IMG/VR virus record: IMGVR_UViG_3300008259_000014
Span: 1 to 64,000 of that record
Source: a virus
Strand: one strand, 5' to 3'
Length of the DNA: 64,000 bases
Under the pieces are notes generated by a model. The model worked only from the letters and a program-made list of their open reading frames with translations, searched no databases and was not told the origin of the DNA. Made by a program: the position numbers and the translations under genes. Of the stretch, positions 1-3,304 are shown piece after piece; position 1 is the stretch's first letter; each line of letters begins with the position of its first letter.

Positions 1-353
1 GATCTATATTCATCAGTTTGAACAACTGCATTGTGATTTTCTTTTTCCTTCTTTTTTATATTGGAAAAATAATTATTTATAATATCCATGTCACAATCTG
101 GAATCGAAAGATATTCTATAAAATTAGTTATGTTAAAAAATTTTTTTCTAAAACTAAATAAATCTTTTGCAAGGCTATCTTCAAAATAATAAGCAAAATA
201 TTCTATAGATGAAGATGAGATTGGCATCTCTTTTTTTCCAGAGACTTTCTTTTTTGGATAGCCTTTATTATTTGTAAATTCTTTTTTTAGCTTTATATTA
301 AAAACTGGAATATTATTTTTTATATTATAAGATATATCAAAGTATTCTATCAT
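1..353 (-). CDS. Partial ORF (>117 aa, runs off window), probable free-standing homing endonuclease inserted in the fractured recA
   Basis: Absent from the ORF track. Manual translation from ATG 353 (RBS GGTGG): MIEYFDISYNIKNNIPVF...NHNAVVQTDEYRS, open to base 1. The endonuclease call rests on its position after a split-intein fragment and on hairpin-occluded initiation; no catalytic domain lies in the window. Confidence 0.5.
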   Translation of the reverse strand, partial: MIEYFDISYNIKNNIPVFNIKLKKEFTNNKGYPKKKVSGKKEMPISSSSIEYFAYYFEDSLAKDLFSFRKKFFNITNFIEYLSIPDCDMDIINNYFSNIKKKEKENHNAVVQTDEYR

Positions 354-409
354 TTTCCACCTGGTGTATTCTAAATACAAATAATAATAGAATACACCAG
401 GTGGAAAAT
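352..409 (-). promoter_or_regulatory. 22-bp perfect inverted repeat (14-nt loop) sequestering the RBS and start codon of the downstream ORF
   Basis: ATTTTCCACCTGGTGTATTCTA (352-373) and TAGAATACACCAGGTGGAAAAT (388-409); the 3' arm on the minus-strand transcript contains GGTGG-AAA-AT(G). Confidence 0.85.
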
Positions 410-732
410 TAAACCTTATATCTTATTTTTACTTTTGTAGTAAAAGGATCAACGCATTCTGGATTTCCCCACATTTCACCTGGATTTACTCTTACTTGGT
501 TGATTGCAATCATAGCAACATTTGCGTCTGCAATTCCAGGCGTTAGCTTCTTTAACTCTACCGTTAGAAATCTTGCAACTGCTGCCATCAAAGCTTTTCC
601 AACTTCTGCCTCAACCTCCTGTGGTACCTGTAAGTTTGCAATCGAATCTAATACAATAACTCCCATCTTTCCACAGTTTAAGGAAACTTTCTTTTTTGTA
701 GAAGGGTTTACATATGATATAGTCTGGCCTCT
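409..732 (-). CDS. recA: RecA middle segment (Walker B to loop L2) fused to a 15-aa split-intein N-fragment
   Basis: VIVLDS (Walker B), AINQVR, MWGNPE, then CVDPFTTKVKIRYKV-stop. The frame is open from 732; the track ORF starts at ATG 666. Confidence 0.85.
   Translation of the reverse strand, partial: RGQTISYVNPSTKKKVSLNCGKMGVIVLDSIANLQVPQEVEAEVGKALMAAVARFLTVELKKLTPGIADANVAMIAINQVRVNPGEMWGNPECVDPFTTKVKIRYKV
412..456 (-). mobile_element. Split intein N-fragment (IntN, 15 aa)
   Basis: Cys1 plus block-A-like CVDPFTTKVKI replaces the expected (T/S)xxGG of RecA L2, then a stop codon. Confidence 0.75.
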
Positions 733-1073
733 CTATCATTATCTACTCCAAACTTTGCAGCCCATTCTGCAGAGTATGTATACTCTGCATCAATAAATGC
801 AACGCAATTTTCTGGATCTTGTGCCTGCCAATTTGCCATTGCAATTAATGCAAGCAATGTCTTTCCTGAGCTTGGGGCTCCCGCAAGTTGGATCAACCTT
901 CCTCTTGGCCATCCGCCTATTCCAATTGCCCTATCCAAAGAAGGCGTTCCAGTTGGTACAGTGTCTGTGTGTATTGTCTGATCTGGTCTTACAACTGATT
1001 CAGATCCAAATAAATCCTCTAAGCTTTTCCAAGCTTCTGAATCTGACAATAACTTCTCTTCGCCTTTAGCCAT
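708..1073 (-). CDS. recA: RecA N-terminal segment, out of frame with the next segment
   Basis: TGTPSLDRAIGIGGWPRGR, Walker A GAPSSGKT, FIDAE; homology is lost after GVDNDR. Confidence 0.9.
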   Translation of the reverse strand: MAKGEEKLLSDSEAWKSLEDLFGSESVVRPDQTIHTDTVPTGTPSLDRAIGIGGWPRGRLIQLAGAPSSGKTLLALIAMANWQAQDPENCVAFIDAEYTYSAEWAAKFGVDNDREARLYHM

Positions 1074-1082
1074 TATTTCTCC

Positions 1083-2747
1083 TTAGTATTTGTGGTTTAA
1101 GTTTGCGTTTTCTGGCGGCCTCCATCCTGCCGGCGCTTGCCAGTCAGATTTGTTAACCGGTGAATCAGAAACTATCGCTTCTGTATTTATAAGCAGCAAT
1201 GCTATGCTTGTCGAGTTTTCTAGAGCTGTTCGTGTAACTTTTTTTGGATCAATAACACCTGATTCAATCAGGTTTTCCCACTTCATGGTTGCGGCATTAA
1301 AACCAATTCGCCAGTCTTCAGTTTCGATGGTCTGCTTTAGTATTTGCTCAGCGTCTTGATGGGCGTTTAATGAGATTTGCATTAAAGGCTTTTTGCAAGA
1401 TTCCATCAATACCTCTGCAGCTTCCTTGAAATCTTCTGGAATTTTAGACTTATCTATCATCCTTACAGCTCTAACAAGAGCTGTTCCGCCACCGGGAACA
1501 AATCCCTCATCAATTGCTGCTTTTGCAGCAGATAAAGCGTCCTCTAGTCTATCTCCTTTTTCTCTTAACTCCAACTCAGTCAAATAGCCAACGCATATAA
1601 CTGCTGTTTTATTTTGAAGAAATTCAATCCTCTTTCTTAGATCTAACCTTTCTGTATCTCCAAGATTTTCTTTTATATCATGTGCATAAAATGCAAGTTT
1701 ATGCTCTAGTCTTTTTATATCTTTTTTTCCTTCAACAATATTTGTTACATATTTATTTACTGATATTCTTTTTGCATATCCAAGATCACTTAGTGATGCA
1801 GCTGATAATTCTATTCCGTTTGCAGATCCAAAAACTTTTGCTCCAGTAAGAATGGATAAATCATCTAGCCATTCATTTTGATGCTGACCGGCAAATGGTG
1901 GAATTTCCGTTGCTACACATTGCAGCCTACCAAGTTTATTATTAGCAACAAGTGTTGCCAAAGCCTCTTGCTTTAGAGCCTTGCATATAATTAACAATGG
2001 AGCTTGGCTGTTGCTCAGCTCATTTAATAACGGTAAAAATCCATTTAAAGATGCTATCTCTTGATTTGCAATCAATATTCTTGCATTTTCAAATACAACA
2101 TCTGACTTGCCATCTAGTAAAAAGTTTGATGTTATATAGCCTTTTTTATACTCAAGACCCTCTGTCACACGCACGTACGTGCGTGTACCTGCTGAGCCTT
2201 CTGCCAATACAGTTCCCTCTAGACCAACCTTCTCAAATGCTTCTGCAATTGCAGAGCCCATATCACTATCGTTATTTGCTGATATTGTAGCAATGTTTCT
2301 TAGCGAGTCAATATCTTCAATTTTTGTTGTTAATAAGTCTAAGTTTTTAACTATCTCGTCTCTTGCCCACTCAAGACCTCTCTTTAGCTTTAAAGGGCTA
2401 TAACCTGTTGATATAAGCGTGTCACCTCTTTCAAATATTTCTCTTGCAAGTACTGTTGCAGTAGTTGTTCCATCTCCCGCCATATCTGCTGTCCTTCCTG
2501 CTGCTTCTTTTACAAGCTGACAAGCCAAGTCTTCAACTGGATCTAGTAGAGTTATCTCTCTAGCAACTGAGACCCCGTCTTTTGTGATTACTGGCGCACC
2601 AACAAATTTTTTCAAAATTACATTCTTTCCCTGTGGACCCATAGTTACTGCCACCGTTTTTGCAAGCTTATCCAATCCACTCTTTAATCTCTGTCTTGCA
2701 TCATTTGCATAATATAAATCTTTTGACATATTAACCTCTCTTAACAA
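1083..2747 (-). CDS. groEL: Chaperonin GroEL, divergent copy 1 (likely start 2729, MSKDLYY)
   Basis: TMGPQG, ITKDGVSVA, AGDGTTTATVL, DRLEDA, PGGG, GVIDP..V. Confidence 0.95.
   Translation of the reverse strand: MLREVNMSKDLYYANDARQRLKSGLDKLAKTVAVTMGPQGKNVILKKFVGAPVITKDGVSVAREITLLDPVEDLACQLVKEAAGRTADMAGDGTTTATVLAREIFERGDTLISTGYSPLKLKRGLEWARDEIVKNLDLLTTKIEDIDSLRNIATISANNDSDMGSAIAEAFEKVGLEGTVLAEGSAGTRTYVRVTEGLEYKKGYITSNFLLDGKSDVVFENARILIANQEIASLNGFLPLLNELSNSQAPLLIICKALKQEALATLVANNKLGRLQCVATEIPPFAGQHQNEWLDDLSILTGAKVFGSANGIELSAASLSDLGYAKRISVNKYVTNIVEGKKDIKRLEHKLAFYAHDIKENLGDTERLDLRKRIEFLQNKTAVICVGYLTELELREKGDRLEDALSAAKAAIDEGFVPGGGTALVRAVRMIDKSKIPEDFKEAAEVLMESCKKPLMQISLNAHQDAEQILKQTIETEDWRIGFNAATMKWENLIESGVIDPKKVTRTALENSTSIALLLINTEAIVSDSPVNKSDWQAPAGWRPPENANLNHKY
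2167..2186. repeat. 20-bp perfect palindrome within groEL-1
   Basis: ACACGCACGT-ACGTGCGTGT, fully alternating purine/pyrimidine. Confidence 0.8.
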
Positions 2748-3304
2748 AGTGTATATTGATTTTTGCTATCAGTTTTGATTATTGTAGCGATCCCAACAGC
2801 AACTGCATCGGCTTCATCTTCAAGTTCTTTTTTAAAAGTACCCTTCTTGGTTGGAATGCGATTAAATCCTTTTAACGTTTTTACCCATTCATAAACTTCT
2901 TCCTTTGAAGAAATCTTTGTGCCAGAAAATTTTGATAAAACGCTTCTAAGCGATAAGACTCCAAGCTTTTCTGGTACTTGTTTTGTCTTAACTATGCAGG
3001 CCATTGTTATAGCTTCGTTAAATACGGATAATACTATTATTGTCTTAGCCGTTGATCTTCCTGCTGCAAATCTTGATACGTAATCTTCAATTATTATTCT
3101 ATCTGGCTTTTTCTGATCTATAAGATTTGATATAATTTCCTGACCCTTTAAGGCTCTCATTGCTAATGAAAGTGGATTAGCCTCAGTTCCTTTGGGCGGC
3201 TTAATGTGACCGTGAGACTCAATTTTTATTTGATAATTATCAATTGTCAAAAGTGACCAGCCTATTGTCGAAGACGACACATCAAGCGATAAAACTCTGT
3301 TCAT
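2741..3304 (-). CDS. RuvC-like Holliday junction resolvase
   Basis: VLSLDVSSSTIGW, IIIED, SKEEV, DEADAVAVG (RNase H-fold acidic residues). Confidence 0.85.
   Translation of the reverse strand: MNRVLSLDVSSSTIGWSLLTIDNYQIKIESHGHIKPPKGTEANPLSLAMRALKGQEIISNLIDQKKPDRIIIEDYVSRFAAGRSTAKTIIVLSVFNEAITMACIVKTKQVPEKLGVLSLRSVLSKFSGTKISSKEEVYEWVKTLKGFNRIPTKKGTFKKELEDEADAVAVGIATIIKTDSKNQYTLC

Follow-up and report, generated by a model that had tools for sequence, protein, structure and literature searches.

A phage recA gene very probably fractured in loop L2 by a split mini-intein and a free-standing Vsr-like endonuclease gene

Background

Fractured genes, described by Dassa et al. (2009, NAR 37:2560; PMC2677866) from phage or metagenomic sequences, carry on one strand an N-extein joined to the N-terminal fragment of an intein (IntN), a short hairpin spacer, a gene for a free-standing Vsr-like (or GIY-YIG) endonuclease and the C-terminal intein fragment (IntC) joined to the C-extein, with the IntC-C-extein gene overlapping the 3' end of the endonuclease gene; alleles with a decayed or lost endonuclease were included. 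In the present work, we describe a recA gene of the same layout at one end of the IMG/VR virus record IMGVR_UViG_3300008259_000014. The stretch of DNA analysed, referred to here as the window, comprises bases 1-64000 of this linear record of 102,310 bp, for which CheckV estimates a completeness of 31%. We consider it very probable that this is a fractured phage recA, in which a mini-intein in loop L2 has been split at the S1 position by the invading gene of a free-standing Vsr-like homing endonuclease.

The layout is already known from fractured genes and from S1-type split inteins with a short IntN, but recA as a host gene is absent from the list of Dassa et al. (2009) and lies outside their eight host enzyme types. 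Their inteins are canonically split (IntN of 88-105 residues) in all but one case, whereas the recA intein is split after 12-15 residues. The spacer is 55 nucleotides long in the window and 27-51 nucleotides in theirs. Hairpins lie upstream of 15 of the 16 endonuclease genes in that study (PMC2677866) and often contain the T4-type late promoter TATAAATA, which on reading the sequence is absent from the window hairpin.

Among natural split inteins with a short N-terminal fragment, IntN has 16 residues in VidaL (PDB 6vgv) and 15 in PolB16 OarG, which was called the 'shortest characterised' (PMC10189870). The recA intein shares with both a natural split directly after beta-strand 2, an IntN of a size accessible to synthesis and an IntC with blocks B, F and G, while the recA intein is predicted to depend on Cys1, as VidaL does. 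It differs from them in host gene and insertion site and has Thr as its +1 residue; moreover, 6vgv and 8cpn appear as structural matches only, at 11-15% identity, and are absent from a profile-to-PDB sequence search. Inteins termed 'VidaL UvsX' are reported to have been listed by Neugebauer in 2017 and by Burton in 2020, and may belong to the recA-intein family. Inteins are also found in RecA itself, but those of Mycobacterium tuberculosis (RecA-a, which contains a LAGLIDADG domain) and Mycobacterium leprae (RecA-b, in loop L2 between MFG and SPE) are contiguous and reside on bacterial chromosomes. A preliminary description of the window puts its site (GNPE/TTPGG) three residues beyond that of RecA-b. 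The GOS-TerL and AceL-TerL inteins resemble the recA intein in their short IntN, long IntC and origin in phage metagenomes; they are, however, split after the first helix (S2; IntN of 25-37 residues) and their host is the large terminase. For the terminase intein, Dassa et al. (2009) give an IntC of 122 residues (PMC2677866). Lastly, I-Bth0305I and the EDxHD Vsr-like homing endonucleases (PMC3239194; Dassa et al. 2009) provide a precedent for a free-standing mobile nuclease of the Vsr fold associated with recA, although I-Bth0305I lies inside a group I intron and not an intein.

Results and discussion

The break in recA and the N-terminal intein fragment

In the minus-strand frame at 409-729, RecA homology runs from GQTISYVNP to INQVRVNPGEMWGNPE, then switches to CVDPFTTKVKIRYKV and stops, exactly as a preliminary description made from the sequence had read it. 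That description expected sequence of the TTPGG type at this point, and intein-less relatives (L003) do continue there with TTPGGKALK. In the alignment to Escherichia coli RecA the break falls inside loop L2, in ...MFGNPE/TTTGG, at a site which we take to be equivalent to that between E. coli Glu207 and Thr208. The codon for Cys1 (454-456) follows directly after GNPE, and this residue is kept in L004, L015, L022 and at least ten further loci; the IntN motif itself was found at at least ten other loci. The tail of IntN, YKV, is not derived from the contiguous form of the intein, and between the window and L015 it has been kept through synonymous codon changes.

In a model of the contiguous intein of L004, the break corresponds to the turn between the strands at residues 8-13 and 16-22. 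The IntN of 15 residues, broken after beta-strand 2, together with an IntC of 124 residues with blocks B, F and G, places the intein in the S1 type of the published split-site nomenclature. The expectation that this IntN would be among the shortest natural ones was right as to its length, but it ties with PolB16 OarG (15 residues, PMC10189870) and does not beat it. The coordinates of all features are collected in Table 1.

Table 1. Features of the fractured recA locus in the window and on the overlapping contig L011
Feature	Coordinates	Strand	Remarks
IntN	412..456	minus	15 residues, CVDPFTTKVKIRYKV; stop at 409-411; first 12 residues match the contiguous intein of L004
recA N-extein, part 1	732..1073	minus	114 residues, MAKGEEK...GVDNDR; Walker A GAPSSGKT; PF00154, 76.6 bits (match at 735-1037)
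recA N-extein, part 2	457..729	minus	91 residues, GQTISYVNP...Walker B VIVLDS...INQVRVNPGEMWGNPE; ends inside loop L2; PF00154, 48.4 bits (match at 454-681)
Junction of 121-nucleotide deletion	730..731	minus	DNA alignment with L003, L004 and L005
RNA hairpin	352..409	minus	perfect 22-bp stem between IntN stop and endonuclease ATG
Vsr/DUF559-like homing endonuclease gene	3..353	minus	first 117 codons; ATG 353-351; runs off base 1
IntC-RecA-C gene	L011:780-1601	same as endonuclease	273 residues; own ATG; AAGGGG Shine-Dalgarno
GroEL-like chaperonin gene	1083-2747	minus	554 residues; directly upstream of recA
RuvC-like open reading frame	2741-3304		upstream of recA, beside the GroEL-like gene

A simple frameshift or a group I intron at the break had been named as findings that would overturn the intein interpretation, and neither was found. 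A frameshift is ruled out by the absence of a RecA C-terminal part (RecA-C) in 1-411, and a tblastn search of intact RecA proteins against the whole 102-kb record gave no frameshifted or nearby RecA-C after GNPE and IntN. For the group I intron, Rfam at E ≤ 1 gave only sub-threshold matches to generic hairpins (microRNA) at 331-422. Apart from the two parts of the N-extein, PF00154 (RecA) has no other match in the 102 kb.

The C-terminal half on an overlapping contig

Base 1 of the window is the true end of the 102,310-bp record, and nothing lies to its left on the contig. The IntC-RecA-C gene that had been predicted beyond base 1 does exist, with its TxxH motif, terminal His-Asn, TTPGG and RecA-C, but on an overlapping contig and not on that of the window. 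When IMG/VR was scanned with the 117-residue open reading frame (ORF) that runs off base 1, the only match found was the end of one contig, L011 (IMGVR_UViG_3300008259_005567, 24.9 kb), which overlaps window bases 1-114 at 114 of 114 nucleotides and continues the reading frame.

On L011, the IntC-RecA-C gene overlaps the 3' end and stop of the endonuclease gene by 20 nucleotides. Its IntC of 124 residues reads MSAYVYEEITVSDLF...KATGGH...NYFANGHLNHN and is followed by TTPGGKALKHACS and the rest of RecA; block B is present as T75-G-G-H78, and the end of IntC, ...NGHLNHN/TTPGG, has His-Asn before Thr+1. Zn-ribbon and primase-like genes come next, as they do after recA in the relatives. The N-extein-IntN ORF thus ends in a stop of its own and IntC-C-extein forms a separate ORF on the same strand, which is the arrangement of a fractured gene; the second ORF of the pair lies beyond the end of the window contig, and the layout on a single contig is known from L015 and L022.

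Were the two contigs from different strains, or their junction an assembly chimera, the window phage could be without an IntC-RecA-C gene. The overlap is just 114 nucleotides long and lies where each contig breaks off within the endonuclease gene; RecA-C and IntC are both missing from the remainder of the 102-kb contig, and the estimated completeness of the record is only 31%. On the other hand, the overlap is identical throughout with the frame kept, and endonuclease homologues of full length are collinear over the window and L011 parts, which lends the join independent support. L015 has the gene order from GroEL to primase in common, all on one contig, and the protein P0021 (273 residues, Logan, 1-kb contig) joins an IntC nearly identical to that of L011 to a C-extein of the L003 type, matching the L003-like N-extein of the window. 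A false join therefore seems to us highly unlikely. The mosaic nature of P0021 is consistent with co-conversion during homing, and the window's N-extein may have its true partner in P0021.

Scans with IntC or the endonuclease's C-terminal part as single proteins returned L011 itself only, and wider reach needed an alignment. The intein part of the C-terminal half has no INPHARED record among cultured phages. One further protein, P0002 (276 residues, JGI, 7-kb contig), is an IntC-RecA-C variant identical to P0001 (a C-terminal half of 273 residues) save for a patch of 19 residues, PKYKNSSFKKANFLFGLNF, in place of intein block F; this patch is copied from the primase-like gene ~1.3 kb downstream (L011:780-1598 compared with L011:1939-2736), and P0002 is the product of a chimeric assembly or else of ectopic gene conversion.

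The window's record, L011 and L024 are independent contigs, and all of them end within the N-terminal third of the endonuclease gene (in the first ~35 nucleotides of L011 and L024, and at base 1 of the window). These shared ends suggest that a population polymorphism, with the cassette present or absent, breaks the assemblies at this gene. No further copies of the endonuclease that might explain the assembly break were found in the window's contig.

Allelic states among the relatives

The relatives fall into several states at this site. Intein-less alleles (L003, whose N-extein has 99% amino acid identity to that of the window, and L005-L008) read uninterrupted GNPE/TTPGG or GNPE/DTPGG. At the same site L004 carries a contiguous mini-intein of 136 residues, in frame within an ORF of 519 residues, which is matched by the window IntN over its first 12 residues and by the L011 IntC from residue ~19. 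In place of the six-residue turn KDGNLD, the cassette thus has YKV-stop, the hairpin, the endonuclease gene and MSAYVY. The split allele L024, which has the endonuclease, shares 98.7% nucleotide identity with the contiguous L004 over 2,859 nucleotides starting just past the break, so that the cassette was gained or lost very recently.

Split alleles also occur on single contigs. L015 (22.6 kb) has GroEL, an intact RecA-N of 261 residues ending in CVDPFSTVVKIRYKV-stop, a 395-nucleotide spacer in which the endonuclease has decayed to its first codons and last ~70 codons, and IntC-RecA-C; the order GroEL, recA-N, cassette, recA-C, Zn-ribbon, primase recurs on this one contig. L022 shows the same layout in a much diverged UvsX-like recombinase, with FGDPW/CVDPFTTKIKIRYEV-stop and RLNHN/TTSGG as its junctions. 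The split of the ...IRYKV-stop type was found on single contigs of diverged lineages (L015, L022, L027-L043). A profile scan of IMG/VR gave 23 matches at ~19 distinct loci, with ~15 split (IntN of 15-30 residues), 4 contiguous and 1 partial.

Several of these loci have peculiarities of their own. In the split allele at L033:1642-2513, the endonuclease is nearly all deleted (a relic of ~40 residues) and the IntN ORF is lengthened to 30 residues (CVDPLTTKIKIRYKVDLKLKYDTKLIKL). L022:2027-2965 holds a second Vsr-like endonuclease gene of 312 residues (...IIEYNGTYWHYD...), which follows the fractured recombinase gene immediately downstream. Two intein junctions, seven extein residues apart, are present in the UvsX-like genes of L035 (~1300-1410) and L036 (~2400-2520), ...(I/V)SHN/TSFGDPY/CVDPY..., where the L2-site intein (split in L035, contiguous in L036) has the end of a second, related intein a short way upstream. 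In the split allele at L040:518-1369 the N-extein ORF opens with an extra segment, …VKVKSLNGEYVPITNYINKG…NTIKVSAAHK…, which looks like part of a further intein.

Evidence bearing on protein splicing

The proposal that this RecA is assembled by protein trans-splicing gains support from the recurrence of the split on single contigs of diverged lineages and from the conservation described below. Alternatively, the two halves of RecA could act as a non-covalent two-piece protein, or one half alone, with the intein fragments as non-splicing relics; an SbcD-like gene fractured by an endonuclease without an intein is on record (Dassa et al. 2009, PMC2677866). The pattern of conservation, however, argues against relics. 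Five lineages all share H78, H123, N124 and T+1 (T125) of IntC, the block B Thr is replaced only in L022, by Ser, and Cys1 is also invariant across lineages whose IntC identity is 32-70%. The ratio of nonsynonymous to synonymous substitution rates (dN/dS) of IntC is 0.07-0.36 at saturated dS, which indicates purifying selection, and the split with both RecA halves intact outlasts the decay of the endonuclease (L015, L033). A nick in the DNA-binding loop L2, with 15 and 124 extra residues on its two sides, would, moreover, be unlikely to be tolerated. We give the two-piece explanation only a very small chance, and joining of the two RecA gene products by trans-splicing is the probable reading of the sequences.

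Structural models agree with a splicing domain. When the AlphaFold2 model of the L004 intein was compared with the PDB using Foldseek, the top ~40 matches comprised nothing but inteins and HINT domains (best E 2e-4, probability 1.00, template modelling score up to 0.55), which points with moderate confidence to a HINT fold. A model of the IntN and IntC complex reached an interface score (ipSAE) of 0.86 against 0.00 for the best control; among solved complexes 58 of 80 attain this mark, among mismatched pairs 2 of 110, and since solved split-intein complexes exist, the pass may reflect likeness to them. The runs agreed in at least 82% of contacts, with a partner pLDDT (predicted local distance difference test) of at least 58, and IntN is modelled against IntC residues 2-12, 71-79 (block B) and 122-125 (HN/T).

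The hairpin and the endonuclease gene

The hairpin between IntN and the endonuclease folds at -36.3 kcal/mol (z = -7.3), and none of 200 shuffled sequences folded as well. Its 3' arm includes the Shine-Dalgarno-like sequence GGUGGA and the A of the AUG. The hairpin was also considered as a repeated element, but its 19-nucleotide arm has no second copy in the genome or in IMG/VR.

The preliminary description had noted an unrelated ORF from 353 and pointed to a free-standing endonuclease, and both points held. The ORF has 117 codons to base 1 and encodes 345 residues once continued onto L011, and its C-terminal domain matches Pfam DUF559 (Vsr-like nucleases) with 22.4 bits, above the cut-off of 20.6. 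Homologues of 341-354 residues cover the window and L011 parts collinearly; for P0003, one of these, the identity is 68% in the window part and 79% in the L011 part. The motifs PD...IECYGTYWHADP...WEED are present, and 8 homologues (296-354 residues) have P180, D181, E191, G194, W197, H198, W241 and E242 without exception. A core of the Vsr type is thereby suggested, with the Asp of PD, a Glu seven residues before the His of (F/Y)WH and a late acidic residue; two homologues bear the name 'very short patch repair' in JGI. The pattern PD...E-x6-H with (F/Y)WH and a later W-E-x-D fits the motifs of the I-Bth0305I family. Cleavage by the window endonuclease is a prediction, and its direct sequence comparison with the I-Bth0305I structure gave no significant match. 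Close relatives of its N-terminal part were limited to L011 in the IMG/VR scan, with none in the JGI metagenome scan.

A deletion in the N-extein

The N-extein of the window copy is split over two frames, 732-1073 (stop 708-710) and 457-729, by a 121-nucleotide deletion, which had also been noted separately in the preliminary description; the view of this recA as a fractured gene holds for the architecture, but this copy is frameshifted in addition. The deletion takes out 41 codons (VYLVKTNEAAKAF...FDMIKS), including the helix aligned with the catalytic-Glu segment of E. coli, and changes the frame, as a result of which part 1 runs into the stop. In the IntN-bearing frame the only possible start is Met 666. 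After removal of the intein, the RecA domain is therefore not in one open frame in the window copy, whereas it is in the intact protein P0013 (261 residues), which consists of the 114 residues of the window, the missing 41 and a further 106 of the window in an exact match. P0013 is recorded from two other contigs (NCBI, JGI). Proteins of the deleted form (P0010, P0015) are on record from the window contig only, and the junction was found in no other IMG/VR contig. With the same protein, bar 41 residues, present elsewhere, the deletion is either a rare variant or an artefact.

Should the deletion be genuine, no active RecA can be produced from this genome even with splicing, and recA here would be a recently inactivated pseudogene, an explanation which is compatible with a fractured architecture and to which we assign slightly less than an even chance. 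Its products would be a fragment of 121 residues and, at best, an IntN-bearing fragment of 85 residues, and a spliced RecA would be without Walker A and the catalytic-Glu helix. The deletion stands in the deposited sequence with the frame changed, no repeats that would readily explain an assembler collapse flank the junction, and P0010 and P0015 derive from a single assembly. Decay of the gene is, however, confined to this place: against L003, dN/dS is 0.013 for part 1 (99% amino acid and 90% nucleotide identity) and 0.020 for part 2 at dS 0.6-0.7, and further stops or indels are absent. The intact P0013 is found on two contigs; furthermore, the locus is less than 1 kb from the contig end and a sister assembly has the chimeric patch of P0002, so that the deletion may just as well be an artefact or a minority variant. 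Between a very recent defective variant and an assembly fault, we see the balance as about even.

Genomic context

All genes at the base-1 end of the window are on the minus strand. Contigs bearing relatives of the RecA N-terminal half are up to 324,661 bp long, and the source is therefore probably an uncultured large phage, a jumbo phage. The window DNA has no INPHARED record among cultured phages. At the far end of the record, outside the window (~102,255-102,310), there is a truncated tRNA-like gene on the minus strand (…GGTGCCCAAGGAGAGACTCGAACTCTC…).

Proposed mechanism and points against it

From the sequences, their conservation and the alternative alleles, we infer splicing and the target of the endonuclease as follows. 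The endonuclease gene would in turn have invaded the mini-intein after its second beta-strand (S1 position), giving the order RecA-N with the 15-residue IntN, stop, a hairpin sequestering the ribosome binding site, the 345-residue endonuclease, and the 124-residue IntC with RecA-C. IntN would dock onto IntC and supply the strands missing from its HINT fold. Cys1 would form a thioester, which Thr+1 would attack, and Asn124 would cyclise with the help of His123 and the T-x-x-H block; splicing would restore ...GNPE-TTPGG... in a recombinase of ~395 residues. The hairpin may hold translation of the endonuclease low, and the endonuclease would presumably spread the cassette into alleles that are without it.

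A number of observations weigh against this scheme. IntC and the 3' part of the endonuclease gene are off the window's contig, linked to it by the 114-nucleotide end overlap and by synteny with L015, and the window N-extein is frameshifted by the deletion. In the search with intein models, Pfam Intein_splicing was not significant (E 0.67-0.85, ~10 bits against a cut-off of 35.8), and in a profile search against PDB sequences inteins came on top at E 0.12-1.1. As the curated models fall below significance, the intein family is divergent. The monomer model of the intein is of moderate confidence (pLDDT 69.8), and the endonuclease matches Vsr structures weakly (E 0.16).

Conclusions

The annotation of the window recA should state that the gene is fractured and that its N-terminal half is additionally frameshifted. 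The relatives provide an allele series for the gene-fracturing model of 2009, comprising intein-less alleles, a contiguous mini-intein, a split intein with an intact endonuclease and a split intein with a decayed one, and one pair in the series (L004 and L024) is almost identical outside the cassette.

Split inteins with a short IntN are wanted for semisynthetic protein labelling, and few natural ones have been characterised (VidaL with 16 residues, PolB16 with 15, the TerL types with 25-37). To these the recA family adds a 15-residue, putatively Cys-dependent candidate with no detectable sequence relation to VidaL or PolB16, and it offers many natural variants (IntN of 15-30 residues) together with a natural contiguous counterpart as a control. 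There is, in our judgement, an even chance that these natural split inteins, of the Cys1/Thr+1 type, form a widespread and uncharacterised family with a new loop-L2 site in RecA and UvsX and a 15-residue IntN that is fully active in trans, and that L004 and L024 capture the fracture of an intein by a homing endonuclease. If so, this pair could be used directly to reconstruct the passage from a cis-intein to a trans-intein, and the family could provide a new ligation tag of peptide size, orthogonal to VidaL and PolB16.

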